Shown here piece by piece: positions 6,548-49,684 of a stretch of 64,000 nucleotides of DNA. A model generated the notes under the pieces. It searched no databases. It was not told the DNA's origin and saw only the letters and a program-made list of their open reading frames with translations. Source of the stretch: an uncultured Thermodesulfobacteriota bacterium (GTDB lineage Bacteria > Desulfobacterota > GWC2-55-46 > JADFVP01); contig CAZMKZ010000001.1 in assembly GCA_964567185.1 (NCBI GenBank), positions 13,507 to 77,506 of the forward strand, written 5' to 3'. Within the stretch, counting starts at the first letter, position 1. The number at the start of each line of letters is the position of its first letter. A program made the translations under genes and the position numbers.

Positions 6548-7981
6548 ATGAAAAAGATACTCAGTAAGCCGAGAGACCTGCCCTCCGTAGAGGCATTGGC
6601 AAACGAAGAGTGCCTTGCAGGGCTCAGAGCTGATTACGGGGCGATCCTCGTGACGGACTCGGCGCGCGCTGTCATTGATGAGGCAAGAGATATACTGTCT
6701 TTTGGGCAAAAGGGCGTAAAGGGCGGTGAGGGGGGCGAATCCATCAGCGTTGATGTGCTTTTGAGCAGAGTGGTTGAGAGGGTGGAGGCCGTCATGGGCG
6801 GCGGGCTACGCAAAGTGATAAACGCCACGGGCACTGTCCTGCATACCAACCTCGGCAGAAGCGTGCTCTGCGACGAGGCCCTTCGCAAGGTTGCCCTTGC
6901 CTGCGCCTCGTACACGGACCTTGAGTTTGATATCGGCAGGGGAGCGCGGGGTGAACGCGATTCATTTTCCGTATCCCTTATAAAACAGCTTACTGGATGC
7001 GCTGAGGCCTCTATTGTTAACAACAACGCCGCGGCCCTGCTCATTACCCTTAATACGCTGGCCGAGGGCAGGGAGGTCATCATATCAAGGGGCGAGCTTA
7101 TAGAGATAGGCGGCTCATTCCGTCTGCCCGATATTATCACTAAGAGCGGCTGTATCCTGCGGGAAGTCGGCACTACGAACAGGACGCACGCCGCAGACTA
7201 CGTAAAGGCCATAGGGGAGAAGACGGCCCTTATATTGAAGGTCCATACGAGTAACTACACCATTGAGGGCTTTACGAGCGAGGTGGGCCTCAAGGAGCTT
7301 GTCTCTATTGGGGCGAAATACAACGTGCCCGTAGTGGAAGACCTTGGAAGCGGCGCTCTGCTTGACCTTACCGCCTATGGCCTGCCCCATGAGCCCCTTG
7401 TCTCGGAGAGCATCCGCGCAGGGGCGGGGTGCGTCACCTTCAGCGGAGACAAGCTCCTTGGCGGCCCGCAGGCAGGGCTTATTGCCGGAAATATGGACCT
7501 TGTGGAGAGGATAAGAAAAAATCCCCTCAAGAGGTCGCTTCGGGCGGGGAAACTAACGCTTGCCGCCCTTGAGGAGACCTTGAAATTGTATTTAACGCCT
7601 TCGAGGCTTCAAGAGCGCCTTCCGGCCTTGAGGCTCATGACCCGCCCTGTTGACGAAATCGAGGCCATGGCAGAAAAGGCCGCTGATATTATCAATAAGG
7701 ATAAGGGCGCGGGCCTCAATGCAACGGTAGAGGAGGCCAGCAGTGTAATAGGCGGCGGTTCACTGCCTGGCCGAACGCTTCCTACGATGGTAGTCTCCAT
7801 AAGGGGCGGCATGGGCCCCGCGGCTCTTTACAGGGCCTTTCTTGAGGCCCGCCCACCACTGCTCCCTGTGCTTGGAAGGATAAGCAAAGACAGCTTTATC
7901 CTCGACGCCCGCACCGTACTTGATGAAGGGGAATTTTTATCGGCCATCAGCACGATTGTCACCCGTATTAAAGGGGGGTAG
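6548..7981 (+). CDS. selA: L-seryl-tRNA(Sec) selenium transferase SelA
   Basis: 477 aa with an N-terminal SelA domain and the PLP-fold region VINATGTVLHTNLGRS and KVHTSNY, consistent with SelA. Confidence 0.85.
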   Translation: MKKILSKPRDLPSVEALANEECLAGLRADYGAILVTDSARAVIDEARDILSFGQKGVKGGEGGESISVDVLLSRVVERVEAVMGGGLRKVINATGTVLHTNLGRSVLCDEALRKVALACASYTDLEFDIGRGARGERDSFSVSLIKQLTGCAEASIVNNNAAALLITLNTLAEGREVIISRGELIEIGGSFRLPDIITKSGCILREVGTTNRTHAADYVKAIGEKTALILKVHTSNYTIEGFTSEVGLKELVSIGAKYNVPVVEDLGSGALLDLTAYGLPHEPLVSESIRAGAGCVTFSGDKLLGGPQAGLIAGNMDLVERIRKNPLKRSLRAGKLTLAALEETLKLYLTPSRLQERLPALRLMTRPVDEIEAMAEKAADIINKDKGAGLNATVEEASSVIGGGSLPGRTLPTMVVSIRGGMGPAALYRAFLEARPPLLPVLGRISKDSFILDARTVLDEGEFLSAISTIVTRIKGG

Positions 7982-34269: not shown

Positions 34270-34343
34270 TGGAGCGGGCGATGGGAATCGAACCCACGTG
34301 TGCAGCTTGGGAAGCTGCCATTCTACCATTGAATCACGCCCGC
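34270..34343 (-). tRNA. tRNA-Gly (anticodon CCC)
   Basis: Reverse complement is GCGGGCGTGATTCAATGGTAGAATGGCAGCTTCCCAAGCTGCACACGTGGGTTCGATTCCCATCGCCCGCTCCA. Cloverleaf fits: GCAGC/GCTGC anticodon stem, loop TTCCCAA, TTCGATT T-loop, encoded CCA. Confidence 0.9.
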
Positions 34344-37941: not shown

Positions 37942-37970
37942 TTGACAGGGCCGTGAGGATATATTATTGT
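37942..37970 (+). promoter_or_regulatory. candidate promoter TTGACA-17 nt-TATTGT driving the riboswitch transcript
   Basis: -35 hexamer at 37942-37947 and -10 at 37965-37970, about 25 nt upstream of the riboswitch P1 stem. Confidence 0.45.
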
Positions 37971-37995
37971 CATAGCACAATTGAATAAATGGATA

Positions 37996-38150
37996 TCTTA
38001 TCCAGAGTGGTGGAGGGACTGGCCCGATGAAACCACAGCAACCGGTGCATCACTGCATGTCAGGTGCTAAATCCAGCAGGGTTTGCAAAAACCCTGAAAG
38101 ATAAGAAGAACTAAGAGACCCTCTTCTTATCCCAAGAAGAGTTTTTTTTT
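37996..38150 (+). ncRNA. SAM-I (S-box) riboswitch with intrinsic terminator expression platform
   Basis: TCTTATCCAGAGTGGTGGAGGGACTGGCCCGATGAAACCACAGCAACC...CTGAAAGATAAGAAG. The GGTGGAGGGACTGGCCCGATGAAACC core matches the SAM-I kink-turn/P2-P3 consensus, and P1 is TCTTATC/GATAAGA. A terminator CTCTTCTT-ATCCC-AAGAAGAG plus T9 lies at 38121-38150, and its 5' arm can alternatively pair with the P1 3' strand. Confidence 0.85.
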
Positions 38151-38218: not shown

Positions 38219-39472
38219 ATGAAGTACATGAAAGGATTAAAGTGCAGGGAGTGCGGGAAGCGCTATCCCCTGGAACCGATCCATGTCTGCGAGTTCTGTT
38301 TCGGGCCCCTTGAGGTGGACTATGATTACGAGAAGATAGGCAAGTCCATTACCAGAGACATCATTACCACCAGAGCCCCTAATATGTGGAGATACAGGGA
38401 GTTGCTTCCCATAGACGCCGAGCCCACGGTGGGCAACAACTCCGGATTTACGCCCCTTGTAAGGGCCTATAACCTGGGCGAGGCCCTGGGCGTTAAAGAA
38501 CTGTACATAAAGAACGACGCCGTTAATTTCCCGACCCTCTCTTTCAAGGACAGGGTGGTCTCCGTGGCCATCTCAAGGGCCAGAGAGATGGGCTTTGACG
38601 TCATCGCCTGCGCCTCAACGGGCAACCTGGCCAACTCCGTTGCCGCCAACTCCGCGGCCTGCGGCCTTGATAGCTATGTCTTCATACCCTATGACCTTGA
38701 GCAGACCAAGATAACGGGAACCCTTATCTACGGCACTAACCTCGTGGGCATAAAGGGGACCTATGACGAGGTGAACAGGCTCTGCAGCGAGATAGGCGGC
38801 AAATACGGATGGGCCTTTGTAAACATCAACATCAGACCCTTTTATGCCGAGGGCTCCAAGACATTCGGCTACGAGATAGCCGAGCAGTTGGGCTGGAAGC
38901 TCCCGCAGCACGTTATTGTGCCCATGGCCGGGGGCTCTCTCATCACAAAGATATGGAAGGCCTTCAAGGAGTTCAAGGCCCTTGGTTTTGTCGATTCTCC
39001 GCCGGCGAAGATATACGGCGCGCAGGCAACGGGATGCGCCCCCATAGTAACGGCTGTTAAGGAAAAGAGCGAGCTCATCCGTCCGGTCATGCCCGATACT
39101 ATCGCCAAATCCCTTGCCATCGGCAACCCGGCCGACGGCTTTTACTCCGCAAGGGCCATCAGGGAGAGCAATGGCTGGGCCGAGGACGTTTCAGATGAAG
39201 AGATAATCGAGGCCATGAAGCTCCTTGCCGAGACAGAGGGCATTTTTGCCGAGACAGCCGGCGGCGTTACCGTGGGCGTGACTAAAAAACTCATCGAGCA
39301 GGGCAGGATACCCCGTGACGAGTCCATAGTCATCTCCATTACGGGCAACGGCCTTAAGACTCAGGAGTGCCTGGCGGGAAAAATCGCCGAGCCCCCTGTA
39401 ATAGAGGCTAAACTTGCCGAGTTCGACGCCCTGCTTGAGGGCGGCTCCGTGCGGAAGACGGCGGTAAAATAA
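38219..39472 (+). CDS. threonine synthase-like PLP enzyme (fold type II) with an N-terminal zinc ribbon; candidate O-phosphohomoserine-dependent homocysteine synthase (MetM-like, MA1715-like)
   Basis: CRECGKRYPLEPIHVCEFCFGPLEV zinc ribbon. PLP lysine motif FPTLSFKDRVVSV. ThrC-like length of 417 aa. First gene after a SAM riboswitch. Confidence 0.8.
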   Translation: MKYMKGLKCRECGKRYPLEPIHVCEFCFGPLEVDYDYEKIGKSITRDIITTRAPNMWRYRELLPIDAEPTVGNNSGFTPLVRAYNLGEALGVKELYIKNDAVNFPTLSFKDRVVSVAISRAREMGFDVIACASTGNLANSVAANSAACGLDSYVFIPYDLEQTKITGTLIYGTNLVGIKGTYDEVNRLCSEIGGKYGWAFVNINIRPFYAEGSKTFGYEIAEQLGWKLPQHVIVPMAGGSLITKIWKAFKEFKALGFVDSPPAKIYGAQATGCAPIVTAVKEKSELIRPVMPDTIAKSLAIGNPADGFYSARAIRESNGWAEDVSDEEIIEAMKLLAETEGIFAETAGGVTVGVTKKLIEQGRIPRDESIVISITGNGLKTQECLAGKIAEPPVIEAKLAEFDALLEGGSVRKTAVK

Positions 39473-39677
39473 GGGACGGGGCGTGATCGGGGGAGGCCCG
39501 TAGAGTATTGGCGCGGGGCAGGATTAACCGGCAGGGCCTGTGCAATATAACAAGGGCTGCCCGGTAGAGAGGCGGGTTCGGCTTGTAATAGTGACCCTCT
39601 TTCTGTTATCATTAGGGTTTAAGAAATATAAAAATTTTCCCTCTAAGAGGGGCGGTTTTCTTAAGGAGGTTTTTTTT

Positions 39678-40673
39678 ATGACGGACCATTTCATAGAGGA
39701 TAAGAGCCATAAGGTAGACCTTGACCTTGAGAACCTCAGCGGTAAGGTTAACTTCGGCGACCTCAAATCCGGGGGGTTCATAAAGCAGCGCCAGAAGGAC
39801 CTCTTTACCGTAAGGCTCCGCTGTCCCGGCGGCAGGATGACTACGGACAAGCTCGTGGAGATATCGAGGCTCGCAAAAAAATACAGCAAAGAGGGTGTGG
39901 TGCACTTCAGCTACCGCCAATCCCTTGAGATACTATATGTGGATTATAAGGACTTTCACGCCCTTGTGGGCGAGCTTGAGAAGATAGGTCAGAAAGTGGC
40001 CTCATGCGGGCCCCGTGTAAGGGTGCCCACTGCCTGCGGCGGATGCGAGTATAACCCCAACGGGCTTATAGACGCGCAGAAGATGGCCCGCATGGTGGAC
40101 GGTAAGTTCTTCGGAACAAATACGCCGCATAAGTTCAAGACCTCTTTTTCGGGCTGTCCCATAGATTGCTCAAGGACCGTTGAGATGGACCTCGGTTTTC
40201 AGGGCGTAGTGGACCCCGAGTGGGAGCAGGACCTCTGCACGGGATGCACCATCTGCTCCGAGGCCTGTAAAGAGGGGGCCATTGAGGCCCACCCCGATAC
40301 AGGAGAACCAATCTTCGACGTTAGTAAATGCCTTTACTGCGCCGACTGCATACGGGCCTGTCCCACCGAGGCGTGGAAACCCGGCAAGCACGGCTTTCTT
40401 GTGCGCATTGGCGGCAAACATGGCCGTCATCCCCTTGAGGGCGTTGAAATCTGCCGTTTCCTACCGGAGGAAAAGGTAAGCGACGCCATAGAGATGACCG
40501 TCAGGTGGTATAAAGAAAACGGCAAGAGTTTCGAGAGGATAGGGCACACCCTGCAGAGGGTGGGCATGGACGGTTATCTTGACCACATGGCCCCGCTCTT
40601 CGGTGATTATGCCGTTAGACCAAAGCATCCGCCCACGGACCGTCCGCTGATCAATAAGCCCGAAGGGGCCTGA
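39678..40673 (+). CDS. small dissimilatory-type-like sulfite reductase (Dsr-like, alSiR-type) with an inserted 2x[4Fe-4S] ferredoxin domain (start ATG 39678 with RBS AAGGAGG)
   Basis: NIR_SIR-type Cys cluster SCGPRVRVPTACGGC ... GCPIDCSRT. Ferredoxin motifs CTGCTICSEAC and CLYCADCIRACP. Confidence 0.7.
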   Translation: MTDHFIEDKSHKVDLDLENLSGKVNFGDLKSGGFIKQRQKDLFTVRLRCPGGRMTTDKLVEISRLAKKYSKEGVVHFSYRQSLEILYVDYKDFHALVGELEKIGQKVASCGPRVRVPTACGGCEYNPNGLIDAQKMARMVDGKFFGTNTPHKFKTSFSGCPIDCSRTVEMDLGFQGVVDPEWEQDLCTGCTICSEACKEGAIEAHPDTGEPIFDVSKCLYCADCIRACPTEAWKPGKHGFLVRIGGKHGRHPLEGVEICRFLPEEKVSDAIEMTVRWYKENGKSFERIGHTLQRVGMDGYLDHMAPLFGDYAVRPKHPPTDRPLINKPEGA

Positions 40674-40788
40674 TTAGCCGCGCTTCATTGGGTCGGGTAT
40701 GGATAATGGGGGGTAATCGGCGCAGTGGGTTTTCAGCTTTCGCCGGGAACCCGAAACATAACAGATCAGGACAAACGGTAAGGTTGAT

Positions 40789-41028
40789 ATGAGTGAGATA
40801 AAGGCAAAGGACAGCATCGATTTAAGGGGCGTCATGTGTCCCACAAACTTTGTAAAGACCAAGCTCAAGCTCGAGGCCATGAACCCCGGCGAGATACTCG
40901 AAGTGGTGCTTGACAGCGGCGAGCCTATCGCCAACGTGCCGAAAAGCGTCAAGGAAGAGGGACACAAGATAGTCAAGGTAAGCAAAGACGACGGCTCATT
41001 CAGGATTTTGATAGAGGTCTCTGAATAG
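40789..41028 (+). CDS. TusA/SirA-family sulfurtransferase-like protein
   Basis: 79 aa. ...IDLRGVMCPTNFVKTKLKLEAM... is a Cys-Pro TusA-like motif in a two-layer alpha/beta fold. Confidence 0.65.
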   Translation: MSEIKAKDSIDLRGVMCPTNFVKTKLKLEAMNPGEILEVVLDSGEPIANVPKSVKEEGHKIVKVSKDDGSFRILIEVSE

Positions 41029-41063
41029 CCCCTAATAAAGTTTTCAAGTACAAGGAGGAGAGT

Positions 41064-41348
41064 ATGTCAGTAAAGGTGAGGATACCCACACCCCTGAGGA
41101 AGATTACAAAGGACAACGACGAGGTCACTGCCGACGGGGCCACGGTCTCCGAGGTAATAGACGACCTGGAGAAAAACTATCCGGGAATAAAGGAGAGGAT
41201 ATGCGAGGCCGACGGGAACCTCCGCCGCTTTGTAAACCTCTATCTCAATGACGAGGACATTCGCTTCAAGGATAACCTCGCTACTGCACTGAAAGACAAC
41301 GATGAACTCTCCATCATTCCGGCCATCGCCGGAGGAGGTGGCCTTTGA
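41064..41348 (+). CDS. ThiS/MoaD-family sulfur-carrier protein (CysO/HcyS/MetO-like) whose C-terminus ...AIAGGGG-L* needs proteolytic exposure of Gly-Gly
   Basis: 94 aa beta-grasp pattern with a glycine-rich C-terminus followed by a single Leu before the stop at 41346-41348. Confidence 0.7.
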   Translation: MSVKVRIPTPLRKITKDNDEVTADGATVSEVIDDLEKNYPGIKERICEADGNLRRFVNLYLNDEDIRFKDNLATALKDNDELSIIPAIAGGGGL

Positions 41349-41581
41349 AAAAAAAGGTCTATCTAACCTATCCTCCGGAGAGGGTGAGAGAGCCTCTTCT
41401 CTGTGAGTGCGTGCGCAGGTTCAATGTCGTAACCAACATAAGGCAGGCCTCTGTTACGGACAAGATAGGCATCGTGGCCCTTGAGCTCGAAGGCGAGCCC
41501 ACGGAGATAGAAAAGGCCATGGACTTTTTTACTGAAAACGGCGTGAAGGTCGAGCCTATTGAGATGAATATTATCGAGTAG
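41345..41581 (+). CDS. stand-alone NIL-domain protein (the MetN C-terminal-type domain). TTG start overlaps the carrier-gene stop by 4 nt (TTGA); RBS GGAGGAGGTG
   Basis: KVYLTYPPERVREPLLCECVRRFNVVTNIRQASVTDKIGIVALELEGEPTEIEKAMDFFTENGVKVEPIE aligns by eye to the MetN NIL domain (LTFTGE...PLISEL.RRFGVDVNIL.GNIE...G.L.VELEGD...ALAYL.E.GV.VEVL). Confidence 0.7.
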   Translation: MKKKVYLTYPPERVREPLLCECVRRFNVVTNIRQASVTDKIGIVALELEGEPTEIEKAMDFFTENGVKVEPIEMNIIE

Positions 41582-41679
41582 CGCCCTCTCACCTTTCCCC
41601 GTCCTTGTCCAAAGGACGGGGAGCCTTGCAAATTCAACTCCCATTGGATTCTTTTCCTTGAAATCACTGCATATTATTC

Positions 41680-41706
41680 TTGACAAACCCGCTAAGGTAT
41701 TATAAT
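41680..41706 (+). promoter_or_regulatory. possible internal promoter (TTGACA-15 nt-TATAAT) upstream of the CysM-like gene, preceded by a 10-bp hairpin CCCCGTCCTT-GTCCA-AAGGACGGGG at 41594-41619
   Basis: Hexamers and hairpin seen directly. The spacer is short at 15 nt. Confidence 0.3.
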
Positions 41707-41810
41707 TTAAAAACTTGATTGTTTTAGTAAGGTAATAAAAAATGCCTTGTAAAAAGCGAGGTTTTAAGGCGCCTCTCCATAATGCTTAACATAATTCCAA
41801 GAGGCCTTGA

Positions 41811-42767
41811 ATGAGCAGCCATACCTTGAAGAGTTTTGACGCAGGGAACGAGTTTGCCATCCCGAAGGCGAGGTCCTCGGCCCTTGACCTTGTGGGCAAT
41901 ACGCCCCTTGTGAGGATAAACAGCATTACAGCGGGTCTTCCAGCCGGCGTAGAGGTATACGCCAAGCTCGAGTCCGCCAACCCCGGGGGCTCTGTAAAGG
42001 ACAGGCCGGCGCTCCGTATGATAGAAGACGCCGAGAAGAGCGGAAGGCTTACCAGGGATAAGATAATACTGGACTCCACATCGGGAAACACGGGCATTGC
42101 CTATGCGTGGATAGGCGCCGTAAAGGGCCATCGCGTAGAGCTGGTGGTTCCGGAAAACGTCAGCGCCGAGAGAAAAAAGATACTCGACGCCTTTGGGGCC
42201 AAGGTCATATTTTCAAGCCCCTTCGAGGGCTCCGACGGTGCGATACGTCTTGCCTGGAAGCTCTACGTGGATAACCCCGAAAAGTACTGCAAGCTCGATC
42301 AGTACAATAACCCCTCCAACCCCCTTGCCCATTACCATGGCACGGGAGTTGAGATAATCGAGCAGACAGGGGGCAGGATCACGCACTTTGTCACCACCAT
42401 AGGCACGGGCGGCACCATAATGGGGACCATGCGCAGGCTCAAGGAGTTTAACAGCAATATCGAAGTAACCGCCGTTGAGCCCGACAACCCCATGCATGGG
42501 CTTGAGGGCCTGAAACACATGGCCTCGTCCATAGTGCCGGGCATCTATCACGAGGACTCGCTGGACAGGAAGATACCGGCCTCCACCGAAGAATCTTACG
42601 AGATGGCCAAGAGGCTAGCCCGTGAAGAGGGCCTTCTTGTGGGGCAGTCATCGGGGGCGGCCATGCTCGGAGCGCTCAAGGTGGCCATGGAGCTTAAAGA
42701 GGGTCTTGTTGTGACAATATTCCCCGACGGCGGAGATAAGTACCTCTCCACAAGCCTCTGGGATTAA
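41811..42767 (+). CDS. cysteine synthase-like PLP enzyme (CysM/CysK family, fold type II)
   Basis: GNTPLVRINSI...VYAKLESANPGGSVKDRPALRMIEDAEKSGRL...DSTSGNTGIAYAWIGAVKGH is the classic CysK/CysM N-terminal half, including the PLP lysine. Confidence 0.85.
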   Translation: MSSHTLKSFDAGNEFAIPKARSSALDLVGNTPLVRINSITAGLPAGVEVYAKLESANPGGSVKDRPALRMIEDAEKSGRLTRDKIILDSTSGNTGIAYAWIGAVKGHRVELVVPENVSAERKKILDAFGAKVIFSSPFEGSDGAIRLAWKLYVDNPEKYCKLDQYNNPSNPLAHYHGTGVEIIEQTGGRITHFVTTIGTGGTIMGTMRRLKEFNSNIEVTAVEPDNPMHGLEGLKHMASSIVPGIYHEDSLDRKIPASTEESYEMAKRLAREEGLLVGQSSGAAMLGALKVAMELKEGLVVTIFPDGGDKYLSTSLWD

Positions 42768-43010
42768 GGGCTACGGGGAGCCCGGGCAGATTATTATTTT
42801 AAATGGCTGACAACAGCCGGTATTGATTTTTTTGGCCTGTCTTTTTTTGAAAAAAGAAGGCCACGCGGTTTTTTTTGATGGTTTCGGCTTCACGGGTTAT
42901 GCTTTGCTTTGTCCATCGTGCAAGTGTTTCCATGCGGCTACAGGCCGCTTATAAATGTGATTAAAGGGGCGTATTGCCCATAACGTGTAAATAAAGATAA
43001 GGGGCAAGTA

Positions 43011-43463
43011 ATGGGTCTACTCTCAAAGTTCAAGAAAAAGAATAAGCTGAAGGTGCCTAAGGACGTTTACGATATCATCATTGAACATGCCAGAGAGGAG
43101 TATCCCCATGAGTGTTGCGGAGTTCTCATAGGTAACGCCATGATGGGCAGAAAGATATTCTACGCCGACAAATGCACGAACCTGAACCGCGAGAGCGCAC
43201 ATAACAGGTATCTCATGGACCCCAAGGAGATAAATCTTGCCGATAAGGGTGCGCGCTCGCAGAGCCTTGAGCTTATGGGCTTTTATCACTCTCATCCGGA
43301 CCATCCGGACAGGCCCTCGGAGTACGACAGGGAGATGGCCCAGCCCGGATACTCATATATAATAGTCTCCGTAAAGGGCGGTACCGAGTTCTCCTTGAAG
43401 TCATGGACCTTTAACGAGGACGATGAACCCTTCAAGGAAGAGCCCGTGGAGATAGGCAAATAA
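43011..43463 (+). CDS. JAMM/MPN+ family metalloprotease (Mec+/HcyD/QbsD-like)
   Basis: E...ECCG, HSHPDHPDRPSEYD (JAMM motif HxHx7Sx2D). 150 aa. Confidence 0.85.
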   Translation: MGLLSKFKKKNKLKVPKDVYDIIIEHAREEYPHECCGVLIGNAMMGRKIFYADKCTNLNRESAHNRYLMDPKEINLADKGARSQSLELMGFYHSHPDHPDRPSEYDREMAQPGYSYIIVSVKGGTEFSLKSWTFNEDDEPFKEEPVEIGK

Positions 43464-43584
43464 AAACCCGGAGGGGTATGTTTGCAGTATACTTTCGGCG
43501 TTAGCGTCCCTGTAATGGGGTGAGTTTTCTTTTTTTGCCGCGATACTACATTTTGTTTTTGCATAGAGGGGGTTAGAGGTCAAG

Positions 43585-44394
43585 ATGGATTTTACCGATG
43601 AACAGATAGAGCGTTACTCAAGGCATATCATACTTCCGGAGGTAGGCGGAAAGGGGCAGGCAAAGCTCCTTGAGTCCAGGGTCTTTGTCCTCGGCGCGGG
43701 GGGGCTCGGTTCTCCGGCCCTGCTTTACCTTGCCGCGGCGGGCGTGGGCACCATAGGGGTTGCAGACGGCGACGTTGTGGATGTAAGCAACCTTCAGCGC
43801 CAGATAATACACGACAACAATACCGTTGGTATGCCAAAGGTGGATAGCGCGCGAAAGTCCATTGAGGCCCTTAATCCCGATGTTGAGGTAAAGACCTTTA
43901 ACGGCAGACTTGATACGGAGAACATCAGAGAGGTCCTTCGGGATTACGATGTGGTCCTTGACGGCTCTGATAATTTTCCAACGCGCTACCTCATGAACGA
44001 CGCCTCTTTTTTCGAGGGCAAGACCCTTGTCTCGGGGTCCATGTTCAGGTTTGACGGGCAGGTCTCTGTCTTCAAGCCGCAGGAGGGCTTTCCCTGTTAC
44101 AGATGCCTCTACCCGGAGCCCCCGCCAAAGGGCATGGTTCCGTCCTGTCAGGAGGCCGGTGTGCTTGGGGCCCTTGCGGGAGTTATAGGGGTACTGCAGG
44201 CCGTGGAGGCCATAAAAGAGATACTCTCCATCGGCAAATCCCTTGCCGGCGAGCTCTTGATATTCGACGCCCTTGCCATGAGTTTCCGCAAGGTCAAGGT
44301 GCGCACAGACCCTGATTGCGCGCTCTGCGGCGGGAATGCTACCATAAAGGAGCTCTCGCTCTATGAGCAGGCCCCATGCGAGCTGCGTACCTGA
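43585..44394 (+). CDS. ThiF/MoeB/HcyF-type E1-like adenylyltransferase (no rhodanese domain)
   Basis: RYSRHIILPEVGGKGQAKLLESRVFVLGAGGLGSPALLYLAAAGVG nucleotide-binding motif. C-terminal Zn motif CYRC...CALCGG. Confidence 0.85.
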   Translation: MDFTDEQIERYSRHIILPEVGGKGQAKLLESRVFVLGAGGLGSPALLYLAAAGVGTIGVADGDVVDVSNLQRQIIHDNNTVGMPKVDSARKSIEALNPDVEVKTFNGRLDTENIREVLRDYDVVLDGSDNFPTRYLMNDASFFEGKTLVSGSMFRFDGQVSVFKPQEGFPCYRCLYPEPPPKGMVPSCQEAGVLGALAGVIGVLQAVEAIKEILSIGKSLAGELLIFDALAMSFRKVKVRTDPDCALCGGNATIKELSLYEQAPCELRT

Positions 44395-44461
44395 TTCGGC
44401 TTTTCGGACTTATGCCGCAAACAGGGGACGGAGAAAGCGGTCTTTTACCTGAGGCGGTTGA

Positions 44462-45697
44462 GTGGTATTGAAAAGCCTGGATTACTTCAAGAACCCCGGA
44501 GCCCTTAAGATAGACCTTATGCTGAGGGGGGCGGCCATAGAAGACCCCCTTGTGAAGGCGCATGCCTGCGGGGCCTCTGGCATAGATATACTCCTGCCTA
44601 AAAAGACCCTCGTAAACATCCCCTGCGAAGACTGGTTTACCGTGCGCTCCCCTTATCTCATTAAAAAGTCTGAAAAGGGGTATGTCCTTACAAACGGCAA
44701 GGCCGAGGTCAGGGTAAGCATACTTCCGCCGCCGAAGTTTTACGGACTGAAGACAAGTTCAGGCGTAAGGCTTGGAGAAATAGCCAGCACTCACGGGAGT
44801 TACACCGTCATAACGCCCGACCAGAGGTGCGCTTTTTTTAAATCAAGCGCCCAGTGCCGTTACTGCGCGGGAAACTTCAGGTCCGACGCCGCCGCGTCCG
44901 GCGCGCGCGTCTATACAGTAGACGAGGTATTAGAGACAGTAAAAGCGGTATTCAGGGAGAGGGCCTCCGGGATAATATACCTCTCAATAGGTTTTGCCGA
45001 GGGCGATGACGGGGGTATAAAATTTCTTGAGCCCTATGTAAGGGCCATTAAGGGGCATTTTAACTGCCTTGTCGCAGTAGAGGCCCTGCCCCCCGCGCGA
45101 AACGAGTGGATCGACAGGGCGTACGCCAGCGGCGTTGATTCACTGCTCTATAACCTTGATATCTTTGATAAGGAGCTTTTTTCCATAATCTGCCCGGGCA
45201 GGGCCGGCCTCATAGGCAGGAAGAGGACCCTTGAAGCCCTGAAATACGCCGCGGGTATCTTCCCTAACGGCACGGTGGCCTCGCACCTCATTGTGGGGCT
45301 TGAACCGCCGGGTTCCACTATCATGGGCATAGATTATCTTACGGATATCGGCGTAGTGCCCATACTGCCCATATTCCGGCCTTCAAGGGAGAGGCCCCTT
45401 GATGTTACGGACCTTCATGCCGAGGTGATTATACCGGTATATCAGCACCTGTACCGGTCCTTGAAGAAAAAGGGCATTAACTTCAACTGGGTCCGCGACA
45501 TAAGCATGGTGACAACCCCCGTGGAGGGCAGGTTCCTCCTTGGGGAAAAAGAGGGCTCAGCCTCTCTGCTTGATAATTTTTACGGCTCAAAGCTCGGCCT
45601 TAAGACGGCATGGGGGCTCTCGGCCCTTCGAAGGCGGCTGCGGGTAAAAAAGCCCGCCAATGAAGAAAACCCCCCAGGCGGGTCTGAAAAGACATAA
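44462..45697 (+). CDS. uncharacterised protein with the Cys triad CAFFKSSAQCRYC (CX8CX2C). Possibly a non-canonical radical-SAM-like TIM-barrel enzyme, or alternatively the COG1900/DUF39 homocysteine-synthesis protein
   Basis: GTG start. 411 aa. Glycine-rich stretch IYLSIGFAEGDDGG about 35 aa after the Cys triad, and later ...VPILPIFRPSRERPL, reminiscent of radical SAM beta-strand motifs. No canonical CX3CX2C. Confidence 0.35.
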   Translation: MVLKSLDYFKNPGALKIDLMLRGAAIEDPLVKAHACGASGIDILLPKKTLVNIPCEDWFTVRSPYLIKKSEKGYVLTNGKAEVRVSILPPPKFYGLKTSSGVRLGEIASTHGSYTVITPDQRCAFFKSSAQCRYCAGNFRSDAAASGARVYTVDEVLETVKAVFRERASGIIYLSIGFAEGDDGGIKFLEPYVRAIKGHFNCLVAVEALPPARNEWIDRAYASGVDSLLYNLDIFDKELFSIICPGRAGLIGRKRTLEALKYAAGIFPNGTVASHLIVGLEPPGSTIMGIDYLTDIGVVPILPIFRPSRERPLDVTDLHAEVIIPVYQHLYRSLKKKGINFNWVRDISMVTTPVEGRFLLGEKEGSASLLDNFYGSKLGLKTAWGLSALRRRLRVKKPANEENPPGGSEKT

Positions 45698-45710
45698 AGG
45701 GAGTATTACC

Positions 45711-47135
45711 GTGAGAGTGGAGATAGACAGGAGGCCCATATCAATAATCATCGCCAATAAGGCGCTGAGGCCCCTTTTTTTCCTTCTCCTTACGGTGGGA
45801 TTTTTCTCATTCCTATACCTCCCCGTGCCCGAGGGGCTGGGGCAGGGCGGCATGAGGGCCATAGCCGTCTTTCTTCTATGCCTTGTGCTCTGGGTCTCAA
45901 ATGCCGTTCCCGTGGCCATTACGGGGCTCTTCGCCATAGTCCTCGTGCCGCTTCTGGGCATACTGCCAAGGGGCGATACGTATTCCCTATTCGGCAATGA
46001 GGCCGTGTTTTTCATACTCGGCGCCTTTATCCTCTCCGGGGCGGTCATGCAGTCCGGCCTCTCGAACAGGGTGGCCCTGCGGCTGATGGAAAAATACGGC
46101 GGCTCTCCGAAGAGGCTTATCATAAGCATATTTCTTCTCGCCGCGGCACTCTCATTCGTAATGAGCGAGCACGCCGTTGCGGCCATGCTCTTTCCCATAG
46201 TGCTTGAGATATCAAAGAGCCTGAAGCTCCGGCCCGGCGTTTCCAACTACGGAAAGCTCCTCTTCTTTGCCCTTGCCTGGGGTTCGGTCATAGGCGGGGT
46301 GGGGACCTTTCTCGGCGGAGCGCGTGTGCCCCTTGCCATGGGCATTCTGAAGGAGACCACGGGCTCTACCATAGGCTTTCTGGATTATACCGTGGCCGTC
46401 GCGCCCCTTGTCGTGGTGCTGCTGGTGGTGGGATACATCGTGCTGACAAGGTTCTTTCCCATTGACATCGAGGGCGTAGAGAGCGCGCACGAGGTCATTG
46501 TAAGGCGCGCCCGCGCCCTTGGCAAGGTGCGCCCGGCAGAGTACGCCGTAGGGGCCATACTCCTTATTACCATCTTTTTCTGGGTGACCATTGGCAAGAC
46601 CGTGGGCCTTGCCGCCATCGCCATGGTCTCGGTGATGGCCCTCTTTGTATTGAAGCTCGTAAAGTGGCGTGAAATTGAGGAGTATGTGAACTGGGGAATA
46701 ATCCTCATGTACGGCGGGGCTATTATCCTCGGCACGGCCCTTGACAGGAGCGGCGCCGCCAAATGGATGGTAGACGCCATTATGACTCAATGGGCCGAGA
46801 CGCCGGTGACGGTGCTGGCGCTCTTTTCACTCCTGGCCATACTGCTCACCGAGTCCATGAGCAACGCCGCCGTCATCGCCGTGCTCCTGCCCGTGAGCAT
46901 CGGCATGGCCGGAAGCACCAATATGAGCCCGGAAGTCCTTACCTATGCCGTGGCCATTCCGGCGGGTCTGGCCTTTATGCTGCCCATGAGCACGCCGGCC
47001 AACGCCATCGCCGTATCAAGCGACTACATATCCGTGCGCGATATGGCAAAGGGAGGGGTGATAATGTTCATCACCTCATGGGTCACCTTTAATCTCATGG
47101 CCCATTTTTACTGGCCCCTCATAGGGCTAAGGTAG
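45711..47135 (+). CDS. SLC13/DASS-family anion permease (Na+/sulfate symporter-like). Start at GTG 45711 with RBS AAGGGAG; the track start 45660 overlaps the upstream gene
   Basis: Polytopic. The PVPEGLGQGGMRAIAVFLLCLVLWVSNAVPVAITGLF hairpin-loop motif is typical of DASS transporters. Confidence 0.65.
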   Translation: MRVEIDRRPISIIIANKALRPLFFLLLTVGFFSFLYLPVPEGLGQGGMRAIAVFLLCLVLWVSNAVPVAITGLFAIVLVPLLGILPRGDTYSLFGNEAVFFILGAFILSGAVMQSGLSNRVALRLMEKYGGSPKRLIISIFLLAAALSFVMSEHAVAAMLFPIVLEISKSLKLRPGVSNYGKLLFFALAWGSVIGGVGTFLGGARVPLAMGILKETTGSTIGFLDYTVAVAPLVVVLLVVGYIVLTRFFPIDIEGVESAHEVIVRRARALGKVRPAEYAVGAILLITIFFWVTIGKTVGLAAIAMVSVMALFVLKLVKWREIEEYVNWGIILMYGGAIILGTALDRSGAAKWMVDAIMTQWAETPVTVLALFSLLAILLTESMSNAAVIAVLLPVSIGMAGSTNMSPEVLTYAVAIPAGLAFMLPMSTPANAIAVSSDYISVRDMAKGGVIMFITSWVTFNLMAHFYWPLIGLR

Positions 47136-47224
47136 GGTTGGGGCAAAACCTGGCGGGTTTATGGGAAAAAATACCGATAAACCCGCCATTATTGTTTACC
47201 TTCCAGAGGATTTAGGTTAAAATA

Positions 47225-47689
47225 ATGGGCAATAAAATACTACTCGTTCTATCGACTCACTCGTACTCGGACCAGGCCGTTGAATATGCTGTCACGAGGG
47301 CCGCGCAGGAGGGCCGTGTGCTTGTGGCCTTCTTTCTGCTTGAGTCGGAGCTTGCCAGAGAGGCCTCGGAGAGGTTCTCGGATATCGGCTTTACAGGCGA
47401 CAAGCCTTCGGCCACGCTCACGGAGTCTCTTATGCGTGAGTACAGGCAGAGGGGCTACGAGGCCCTTGGCAGGGCGCAGATAAGGGCCATGGAGGAGGGC
47501 GTGAGCTTTGAGCCTCTTCTGGATGAAGGGCCTTATGTCTCCACCATACTCGATGCCATAGAGGTCAATGATATAGGACTTGTGGTTATACAGAAGCGCA
47601 GGGAGAGGTCTCTTTTCAAGTACTTTAAAAAGGGTCTTTCCGCAGAGGTGAAAGAGATGGCCTCCTGTGAGGTCGTTATAGTGGAGTAA
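47225..47689 (+). CDS. universal stress protein (UspA family)
   Basis: 154 aa Usp alpha/beta fold. NKILLVLSTHSYSDQAVEYAV...CEVVIVE. Confidence 0.75.
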   Translation: MGNKILLVLSTHSYSDQAVEYAVTRAAQEGRVLVAFFLLESELAREASERFSDIGFTGDKPSATLTESLMREYRQRGYEALGRAQIRAMEEGVSFEPLLDEGPYVSTILDAIEVNDIGLVVIQKRRERSLFKYFKKGLSAEVKEMASCEVVIVE

Positions 47690-47724
47690 TGTAAATTCAT
47701 CACGGTTGAAAGGGAGGATTCAAA

Positions 47725-48432
47725 ATGGCAGTAAAGAAGTGGTCTGAAGAAGAACTTAAAGAGGTATCCGCGGAGCTTGAAGACAAGGGGCCGCAGGCGG
47801 CCATTCAGTGGGCCGTGGACAATTTTGAGAGGCAGGACCTGTCCCTTGCCTGTAGCTTCGGCGCCGAGGATGTAGCCCTGGTGGATATGCTCGTGAAGAT
47901 AAAACCTGACGCCAGGATATTTTATCTTGATACAAACAAGCTCTTTAAGGAAACCATTGATGTTATGGAGCGCCTTAAGGAGAAGTACCACATAAACCCT
48001 GAAAAATACTGCACAAAGATGAGCCTTGAGGAGCAGGCCGAAAAATTTGGACCTGAGCTCTGGAAAAAAGACCCCAAGCAGTGTTGCGATATCAGGAAGA
48101 TAAAACCTCTTAGAGAGGCCCTGTCTGGGCTCAGCGCATGGATAACTGGCATAAGAAGGGACCAGGCCCCTGCAAGGGCCAATGCCCCTGTCGTTGGCTG
48201 GGATTCCATGTTCAACCTGGTGAAGATAAACCCCCTTGTCAAATGGACGAGCGACGATGTATGGGATTATATCCGCGCCAATGACGTGCCCTACAATGTG
48301 CTCCACGACAGGAATTATCCCTCCATCGGCTGTGAGCCATGCACCAATGAGGTAAAACCCGGCGAAGACCCCAGGGCCGGAAGATGGGCTGGTTTCAAGA
48401 AGACCGAGTGCGGCCTTCATGACAAATCATAG
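47725..48432 (+). CDS. cysH: assimilatory adenylyl-/phosphoadenylyl-sulfate reductase (CysH family, Fe-S type)
   Basis: PAPS_reduct fold (SFGAEDVALVDMLVKI). Fe-S Cys pairs KQCCDIRK and IGCEPCT. Catalytic C-terminal ECGLH. Confidence 0.85.
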   Translation: MAVKKWSEEELKEVSAELEDKGPQAAIQWAVDNFERQDLSLACSFGAEDVALVDMLVKIKPDARIFYLDTNKLFKETIDVMERLKEKYHINPEKYCTKMSLEEQAEKFGPELWKKDPKQCCDIRKIKPLREALSGLSAWITGIRRDQAPARANAPVVGWDSMFNLVKINPLVKWTSDDVWDYIRANDVPYNVLHDRNYPSIGCEPCTNEVKPGEDPRAGRWAGFKKTECGLHDKS

Positions 48433-48520
48433 ACATAACCAGTATGAGGTTGCTGCTTCAATATATTGATTTATCAGCCTTTATGTCTTTTAACCCACAG
48501 CATAAGGAGGTTCTCTAAAA

Positions 48521-49684
48521 GTGGAGTCATTGATACCGCCCCATGGCGGCGTGCTTGTTAACAGGGTCGTAGAGGGTAAGGCCCGTCTTGATATGGAAAA
48601 AGCCTCTCTTGATATGAATACCCTCACCCTTAATGCGAGGGAGATATCAGACCTTGAGATGATAGCCACGGGCGGGTTCAGCCCCCTCGAGGGGTTCATG
48701 TGTCATGACGATTATCACTCTGTCATGGATACCATGACGCTGATAAACGGCCTGCCCTGGACCATACCCGTAACCCTTTCTGTAACCACGGAGGAGGCGG
48801 CCGGACTTAAAGAGGGCGTGGATGTTGCCCTTAATAACGAAAAAGGGGAGCTTCTCGCTATCCTTCATCTTGAGGAGATTTTCAAGCATGACAAGGAAAA
48901 AGAGGCCCTTCGAGTATACGGCACCGCCGAAGACGCGCACCCGGGGGTGAAAAACGTCTATGCAATGGGCGAGATGCTTCTTGGCGGCAAGGTCTCCATG
49001 CTCAAACGCACCGAGTACGGCGAGTTCAATGAATACCGCAGGGACCCGCTTGAGACAAGACAGCTCTTCAAGAAGAACGGCTGGAGGCGTGTTGTGGGCT
49101 TTCAGACAAGAAACCCCATACACAGGGCCCATGAGTACATACAGAAGTGCGCCCTTGAGACAGTTGACGGTCTTCTCATACACCCCCTTGTGGGCGAGAC
49201 AAAGGCCGACGACATACCTGCCGATGTGCGGATGCGTTGCTACACGACCCTTATGGAGAAGTATTACCCCGCCGACAGGGTAGTGCTCTCCGTATACCCG
49301 GCGGCCATGCGCTACGCAGGCCCCCGTGAAGCCGTCTTTCATGCCCTGATTCGCAAAAATTACGGCTGTACGCATTTTATCGTAGGCAGAGACCACGCAG
49401 GGGTGGGCGGGTATTACGGCACCTTTGACGCCCATCTCATATTCGACCAGTTCGAGCCCGAGGCCATAGGCATAGCGCCCATGTTCTTTGACTATACCTT
49501 TCATTGCAGGAGCTGCGGCGGCATGGCCTCGTACAAGACCTGCCCCCACGATTCATCGGAGCATATTACCCTTTCGGGAACAAAGGTAAGGGAGATGCTG
49601 AGGGCCGGAACGTGCCCTCCGCCTGAATTCTCAAGGCCGGAGGTGGCAAAGGTCCTCATTGAAGCCATGAAGCCGGCGGATTAA
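48521..49684 (+). CDS. sat: sulfate adenylyltransferase (ATP sulfurylase)
   Basis: GTG start with [26 protein letters not shown] and GRDHAGVG motifs. Confidence 0.9.

Follow-up and report, generated by a model that had tools for sequence, protein, structure and literature searches.

The SAM-I leader and the gene string behind it

We analysed a 64-kb stretch of DNA (64,000 nucleotides, hereafter the window) from an uncultured Thermodesulfobacteriota bacterium, in which an S-adenosylmethionine (SAM) riboswitch precedes a gene for a threonine synthase (ThrC)-like enzyme and a series of sulfur-assimilation genes (Table 1). The riboswitch, which a first-pass annotation of the sequence had placed ahead of the ThrC-like gene, was confirmed with Rfam, where its SAM-I (S-box) aptamer scored well above the gathering score of 44.4 bits for RF00162. 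Between the aptamer and the start codon of the enzyme, whose gene is the first one after the leader, lie 111 nt. The minimum-free-energy fold contains an antiterminator helix, formed by the 3' strand of P1 (GAUAAGAAGA) and the terminator's 5' arm (UCUUCUUAUC). An aptamer followed by a competing terminator and antiterminator has the classic layout of a transcriptional OFF switch, and a ligand response of this kind is predicted for the leader. All genes between 38219 and 49684 lie on the forward strand with short gaps between them, and the string of about 12 genes led by the ThrC-like gene is probably transcribed as one operon. The same gene order, again with a SAM-I riboswitch ahead, was found in the complete Thermodesulfobacteriota genome CP129479.1.

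Table 1 Features of the riboswitch-led gene string, with positions in the window and the evidence for each assignment.
Feature	Position	Strand	Evidence
Putative sigma-70-like promoter, TTGACA-17-TATTGT	37942..37970	+	Consensus scan, 10/12 matches
SAM-I (S-box) riboswitch aptamer	37995..38107	+	Rfam RF00162, 94 bits, E=3e-21, full-length model match
Predicted intrinsic terminator of the expression platform (OFF switch)	38121..38150	+	Terminator scan: 38121-38141, then T9 run
Likely MetM-type ThrC paralogue, 417 aa	38219..39472	+	ATG start, AGGAG 8 nt upstream of it
Small sulfite-reductase-like protein, NIR_SIR and 4Fe-4S ferredoxin domains, 331 aa	39678..40673	+	Pfam
TusA/SirA-family sulfurtransferase	40789..41028	+	PF01206, E=2e-22
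CysO/MetO-type ThiS-family sulfur carrier	41064..41348	+	PF02597
Stand-alone NIL-domain protein, 78 aa	41345..41581	+	PF09383, E=3e-15; TTG start overlaps carrier stop codon
CysM-type cysteine synthase	41811..42767	+	TIGR01136, 349 bits (cut-off of 344 exceeded)
JAMM/Mec-type metalloprotease, motif HSHPDHPDRPSEYD	43011..43463	+	Prok-JAB, E=7e-27; motif from translation
ThiF/MoeB-type E1 adenylyltransferase without rhodanese domain, 269 aa	43585..44394	+	PF00899, E=1e-79
Variant radical-SAM protein	44462..45697	+	NF045502 (MSMEG_0568-like), 166 bits
DASS-family anion symporter, candidate sulfate importer	45660..47135	+	PF00939, TIGR00785
Universal stress protein family	47225..47689	+	PF00582
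APS/PAPS reductase (APS, adenosine 5'-phosphosulfate; PAPS, 3'-phospho-APS)	47725..48432	+	PF01507, E=8e-53
ATP sulfurylase	48521..49684	+	PF01747, PUA_2

The product of the leading gene contains a PALP domain (Pfam, E=2e-69), and K110 in its FPTLSFKDRV motif aligned with K61, the lysine that binds pyridoxal 5'-phosphate (PLP) in Thermus thermophilus ThrC, which bears out the annotation of a ThrC-type PLP enzyme directly behind the riboswitch. We regard the fold of the enzyme as settled by how closely its sequence matches solved ThrCs (E=6e-58). The annotation had also described an N-terminal CxxC...CxxC zinc ribbon. Its presence was verified by a NinF-type zinc-ribbon match in Pfam (residues 8-32), and the four cysteines C9, C12, C24 and C27 were invariant in an alignment of 12 clade sequences. 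The diagnostic value of the ribbon did not hold up, since it was also found in relatives with canonical ThrC motifs in a first neighbour-joining tree and thus does not discriminate between MetM and ThrC. A protein identical to the enzyme is recorded on a metagenome contig of the Joint Genome Institute (JGI).

Placement of the ThrC-like enzyme between ThrC and MetM

The enzyme was compared with solved threonine synthases and with MetM, a ThrC homologue known from Streptomyces albulus. As far as the pathway of Hasebe et al. 2024 is described in the GapMind 2026 preprint, MetM, MetO, Mec and MoeZ lead from O-phosphohomoserine to homocysteine, with MetM acting as the MetO-thiocarboxylate-dependent synthase. 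The S. albulus metM-metO genes are preceded by a SAM riboswitch (Hasebe et al. 2024, as cited in PMC12172450). Our anchor for MetM consisted of Streptomyces orthologues retrieved from GTDB genomes with a codon-biased DNA pattern. A Streptomyces orthologue was 33.1% identical to Bacillus subtilis ThrC, the same value as that published for S. albulus MetM. The window enzyme shared 54% identity (395 bits) with a Streptomyces MetM-type protein, compared to 34-38% identity (about 200 bits) with solved ThrCs.

Neighbour-joining trees were built from 56 sequences, including five solved ThrCs, with 100 bootstrap replicates. The sequences carrying the motif RP[YFW]Y.EG[SA]KT were monophyletic in 100/100 replicates, apart from the five solved ThrCs, which carry PTGSFKDRG and NPxRxEGQKT instead; in the window enzyme the motif reads RPFYAEGSKT (residues 206-215). 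A subclade formed by the window enzyme, eight Streptomyces proteins and one Nonomuraea protein contained motif sequences only and was likewise recovered in 100/100 replicates. The phylogeny proposed as a check by the first-pass annotation thus placed the window enzyme apart from characterised ThrCs and among the products of riboswitch-metM-metO genes of Streptomyces and Nonomuraea.

The two groups also differed in the active site. Relative to T. thermophilus ThrC, the window enzyme has the replacements T88 to L137, S155 to N204, R160 to Y209 and N188 to G238, all of them invariant in 20 clade members, while ThrC N154 is retained as N202. The register of this alignment was trusted because the computed numbering recovers K61 as the PLP lysine. 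Together with N154, the four replaced residues form what we take to be the phosphate site of ThrC; the phosphate bound there reportedly steers water to C-beta (Omi et al. in 2003 and Murakawa et al. in 2011). Residues specific to the clade are R206 (invariant in 20 members), K244 and K297 of the window enzyme. Two sequence markers for telling MetM from ThrC emerge from these comparisons, namely RP[YF]YAEG[SA]KT versus NPxRxEGQKT, and L/N/Y/G versus T/S/R/N at the positions presumed to hold the phosphate.

The clade was then placed in its genome context. An exact pattern made by GC-biased back-translation of the clade motif was run against one genome per GTDB species and returned at least 120 loci, with about 19 Streptomyces species among those listed. 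In addition, the best 80 of at least 599 metagenome relatives (59-75% identity) were inspected. Both samples are biased by motif, codon usage or identity ranking, so that the fractions given here describe the samples and not the whole family. With a covariance model built from four Rfam-confirmed SAM-I leaders, a SAM-I riboswitch was detected closely ahead of the enzyme gene, and in the same orientation, in 96/99 assessable genome loci listed (median gap 67 nt), and 13 of 14 matches re-tested with Rfam were confirmed at identical coordinates. A MetO-type ThiS gene followed immediately downstream in 66/91 assessable genome loci listed, including every listed Streptomyces locus with downstream sequence, and in 54/58 assessable loci of the metagenome sample. 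Homoserine dehydrogenase was linked in 5/80 metagenome loci and an aminotransferase-like gene in 10/80.

Overall, we consider it likely that the protein encoded by 38219-39472 is a MetM-type, carrier-linked homocysteine synthase that uses O-phosphohomoserine. The earlier proposal that a SAM-regulated ThrC paralogue functions as a MetM/MetO-type enzyme finds support in the phylogeny, in the higher identity to the Streptomyces protein and in the clade-wide association with riboswitch and carrier; it is sound but not new, because the pathway has already been published (Hasebe et al. 2024). The gene, re-annotated here, belongs to a family described in 2024, and its operon is richer than the Streptomyces prototype. 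The label "threonine synthase" is too coarse for the enzyme, because similarity, phylogeny and active-site replacements all differ from those of solved ThrCs. Such misannotation appears systematic; it conceals a full pathway to methionine in many soil bacteria and anaerobes and leads to false predictions of auxotrophy. The MetM route reaches past Streptomyces into Thermodesulfobacteriota-like bacteria, Chloroflexota, Acidobacteriota and Planctomycetota, where it would lie inside an operon leading from sulfate to thiocarboxylate. One parallel drawn in the first-pass annotation has to be dropped: MA1715, cited there as a ThrC paralogue of methanogens, belongs to the DUF39 pathway and is a COG2122/ApbE-like protein (PMC5764234). 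Pfam and NCBIfam found no COG2122/ApbE-like domain in the window enzyme, a PALP/ThrC-family protein.

Several observations weigh against the MetM assignment, some of them on general grounds and others in favour of particular alternatives. The Streptomyces orthologues serving as anchor were picked by synteny and by the published 33% identity to B. subtilis ThrC, and are not the S. albulus MetM sequence itself. A SAM-I riboswitch lay ahead of the gene in 30/68 loci of the metagenome sample, over half thus having no detectable riboswitch. The enzyme could also be a genuine and possibly bifunctional threonine synthase/deaminase residing in a sulfur operon, either as the thrC of the cell or as a drain for O-phosphohomoserine or threonine at low SAM. 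Two ThrC equivalog models in NCBIfam matched the enzyme with scores exceeding their curated thresholds (NF006050, 311.1 versus 303; TIGR00260, 293.9 versus 167.1), all its named homologues in a large protein database are labelled threonine synthase, and neither a second thrC nor thrB or hom was found in the 64-kb window by tblastn and by Pfam analysis of all large open reading frames (ORFs). Moreover, a clade member from Microcystis annotated as ThrC, which shares 51.6% identity with S. albulus MetM, is reported to act in vitro as threonine synthase and as threonine deaminase, and methionine did not rise upon its induction (PMC12172450); a residual or dual activity of the window enzyme is therefore possible. 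We nevertheless regard a genuine threonine synthase as quite improbable, given the separate clade, the four replaced residues and the riboswitch found almost throughout the genome loci listed, a mode of control that suits a gene for methionine rather than threonine. The two equivalog models do not separate MetM from ThrC, and MetM is explicitly named as commonly misannotated as ThrC (GapMind 2026 preprint). Finally, Nonomuraea gerenzanensis (NZ_LT559118.1) holds a riboswitch-MetM-MetO locus at 11.81 Mb besides a canonical ThrC gene at 2.50 Mb, whose product is 65.5% identical to Mycobacterium tuberculosis ThrC, and therefore the two paralogues can coexist in one genome. This 11.85-Mb chromosome is listed in PLSDB as 'plasmid I'.

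Another kind of beta- or gamma-replacement, such as the reaction of O-phosphoserine with sulfite (cysteate-synthase-like) or the synthesis of a non-proteinogenic sulfur amino acid, appears highly improbable. Cysteate synthase is itself a ThrC paralogue and sulfite would be made within the same operon, but the match of the window enzyme to the cysteate-synthase model TIGR03844 (73 bits) is weak and far below the cut-off of 325, and the logic of a SAM regulon, the linkage to homoserine dehydrogenase and the orthology with Streptomyces MetM all indicate homocysteine as the product.

Where the riboswitch is missing, control may have been taken over by other means. In 16 riboswitch-less relatives, other riboswitch classes were searched for and none exceeded the Rfam gathering scores. 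A gene for an Rrf2-family (IscR/CymR-like) regulator was present in 9/80 metagenome loci, some of them riboswitch-less (e.g. L130, 217-693), and such a regulator may replace SAM-riboswitch control in that lineage.

Sulfur carrier, proposed route and the NIL protein

According to the first-pass annotation, the enzyme gene is adjacent to a gene for a sulfur-carrier protein. The two do belong to the same gene string but are not direct neighbours: the carrier gene lies 1.6 kb, or three genes, downstream, past the sulfite-reductase-like gene and tusA, and this has to be set against the MetM assignment as well, since a non-adjacent carrier could serve CysM only. The closest solved structure to the carrier is M. 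tuberculosis CysO (3dwg_C, 89 bits), and the carrier is 54-62% identical to the products of Streptomyces MetO-type genes, so that by similarity it appears about equally near to both. It is the sole carrier within the window and probably serves both PLP enzymes, the ThrC-like and the CysM-type one. Its C-terminus reads ...AIAGG followed by a GGL extension, while in homologues the AGG is terminal or followed by 1-7 further residues (AGG-C, AGG-AL). From the tail and its variability in homologues we infer that the C-terminus is trimmed by the co-encoded JAMM protease before activation.

An alternative explanation is that the enzyme is an O-phosphohomoserine sulfhydrylase using free sulfide from the co-encoded sulfite reductase, with carrier, E1 and JAMM protease reserved for CysM. 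This would be in line with a carrier gene that adjoins NIL and cysM and not the ThrC-like gene, and with CysO, of the CysO-CysM system, as the closest solved match. It would also agree with the 25/91 GC-rich clade loci listed without a carrier gene beside the enzyme, and with the use of Na2S to mimic MetM activity in the Microcystis study (PMC12172450). However, we judge it improbable because the carrier gene directly follows the enzyme gene in most loci of both samples, often with no cysM near, and because the published pathway, as described in the GapMind 2026 preprint, depends on the MetO thiocarboxylate. Adjacency of enzyme and carrier genes is not universal. In Micromonospora coriariae (L004) the riboswitch is present and no carrier ORF is adjacent, and other loci of Micromonosporaceae, Pseudonocardiales and Geodermatophilaceae likewise combine riboswitch and MetM-type gene with no neighbouring carrier gene; in these genomes either the carrier must be encoded elsewhere or another sulfur donor must be used. 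Fusions of MetM and MetO, for which two representatives of 50% clusters (P0249 and P0266) were considered, were rejected as frameshifted read-throughs of adjacent genes on high-GC metagenome contigs.

With the enzyme taken as a MetM-type homocysteine synthase, the gene string suggests the following route. Sulfate would be imported by the DASS symporter; ATP sulfurylase, APS/PAPS reductase and the small sulfite reductase, all encoded in the operon, would activate it and reduce it to sulfide. The JAMM protease would trim the GGL tail of the carrier, the rhodanese-less ThiF/MoeB E1 would adenylate the trimmed carrier, and sulfide, or a persulfide on TusA, would turn it into the thiocarboxylate. 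MetM would eliminate phosphate from O-phospho-L-homoserine with no addition of water at C-beta and, being without the phosphate-retaining residues of ThrC, would let the C-terminal thiocarboxylate of the carrier attack C-gamma (gamma-replacement). Following an S-to-N acyl shift, the carrier-homocysteine adduct would be hydrolysed by the JAMM protease, releasing homocysteine. The same carrier probably feeds the CysM-type enzyme through equivalent chemistry for cysteine. When SAM is abundant, the aptamer would be bound, P1 and the terminator at 38121-38150 would form, and transcription would halt before the enzyme gene.

The stand-alone NIL-domain protein encoded directly behind the carrier is the one element of the operon that no published scheme accounts for. 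The steps of the published pathway given in the GapMind 2026 preprint are MetO, Mec, MoeZ and MetM, the NIL protein not being among those listed there. A NIL gene was found downstream of MetM-MetO in 44/58 assessable metagenome loci (L126-L205) and also at L028, L035, L055 and L075, and it accompanies MetM-MetO in most non-actinobacterial loci sampled. The NIL homologues (n=61) are 69-79 amino acids long; they share a NIR.A motif and have no cysteine position in common. Tentatively, MetM, MetO and NIL might form a working unit outside Actinobacteria with NIL, a protein of 78-79 amino acids there, as the third functional partner, and in the window one carrier might supply the syntheses of cysteine and of homocysteine, both governed by the same SAM switch; at present we hold this combined proposal to be possible but doubtful. 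The ACT-like NIL protein could be a regulator sensing methionine, SAM or homocysteine, or an adaptor between enzyme and carrier. A recurrent NIL partner bears on the control of protein-thiocarboxylate pathways and, if the proposal is true, the MetM-MetO-NIL module would be a mechanistic link between the MetM route and the NIL-ferredoxin protein that takes part in homocysteine synthesis by the DUF39 pathway.

Comparison with known systems and remaining genes

Similar to MetM/MetO of S. albulus, the window holds a ThrC-homologous PLP enzyme behind a SAM riboswitch and, in the same presumed operon, a ThiS-family carrier ending in GG with or without a short tail, and it also encodes a JAMM (Mec) protease and an E1. 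In comparison with the Streptomyces arrangement as described in the citing sources, the string of about 12 genes includes cysM as well as genes for taking up and reducing sulfate, and the carrier is encoded by the third gene after that of the enzyme. Instead of a MoeZ-type fusion there is an E1 lacking a rhodanese domain, alongside TusA, which may substitute for the missing part. The stand-alone NIL protein, the one carrier apparently shared by two PLP enzymes and the Thermodesulfobacteriota-like host are further differences. In line with a rhodanese-less E1, the NCBIfam MoeB model matched only in its E1 part (profile positions 120-382).

Sulfate-assimilation neighbourhoods with ThiS, JAB, E1 and SirA have been defined as class 4e by Iyer, Burroughs & Aravind 2006 (PMC1779556). 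All features of that class are present in the window, namely a ThiS-like carrier, JAB, a rhodanese-less E1, SirA/TusA, sulfite and PAPS reductases, ATP sulfurylase and a sulfate transporter. The HcyS/HcyD/HcyF/MetY system of Wolinella succinogenes, which was reportedly described by Krishnamoorthy and Begley in 2011 as a protein-thiocarboxylate-dependent synthesis of homocysteine, corresponds to the same neighbourhood class. It resembles the window operon in a carrier with a C-terminal extension and in the thiocarboxylate logic for homocysteine. The two differ in the enzyme, which is the O-acetylhomoserine sulfhydrylase MetY (fold type I) in W. succinogenes and a ThrC paralogue (fold type II), presumably acting on O-phosphohomoserine, in the window. 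A fold-type I sulfhydrylase (MetY) was not found by Pfam in 38219-49684, where PLP enzymes are limited to the ThrC-like and the CysM-like protein. The window operon is therefore class 4e with the likely MetM-type enzyme and CysM replacing MetY.

The window shares a CysO-like carrier, a CysM-type enzyme and a co-encoded JAMM protease with the CysO-CysM-Mec+-MoeZ system of M. tuberculosis. Cysteine is the sole product of that system, which is not SAM-controlled, whereas the window adds a leading ThrC-type PLP enzyme. With canonical ThrC (T. thermophilus, B. subtilis, M. tuberculosis and Aquifex aeolicus) the window enzyme has the fold, the PLP-lysine motif, the S-T-G-N loop and probably the substrate O-phosphohomoserine in common, while it differs in its separate clade, its SAM riboswitch and its link to a carrier. 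The DUF39/NIL-ferredoxin/COG2122 route (MA1821, MA1822 and MA1715) of methanogens and Desulfovibrio is likewise an anaerobe path to homocysteine that involves a NIL-domain protein. It starts from aspartate semialdehyde, whereas the route proposed here starts from a homoserine ester; the NIL protein of the window has no ferredoxin domain and a DUF39 gene is not present.

Several assignments in the gene string required closer inspection. The mechanical ORF of the sulfite-reductase-like gene extends from a GTG at 39540 to 40673, and its start is probably the ATG at 39678 because homologues and the gene call of the source contig (331 amino acids) agree with it; the counterpart in CP129479.1 has 316 amino acids. 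The CysM-type protein (41811-42767) scored 376 bits with the cysM model TIGR01138, under the cut-off of 394, and its PDB matches were CysM and O-phosphoserine sulfhydrylase. The pair formed by the radical-SAM variant and the DASS symporter recurs in this order after NIL in relatives (e.g. L145, L150 and L166). The remaining window contains chromosomal housekeeping genes (LptE, HolA, MurJ, FtsH, Obg, ProB/ProA, SelA). The gene for SelA, the L-seryl-tRNA selenium transferase (6548-7981, +), makes the use of selenocysteine by the organism probable. Upstream of the riboswitch operon, a tRNA-Gly(CCC) gene (34270-34343, -) lies between an aldehyde dehydrogenase gene and an HlyD/ABC-2 exporter cluster.

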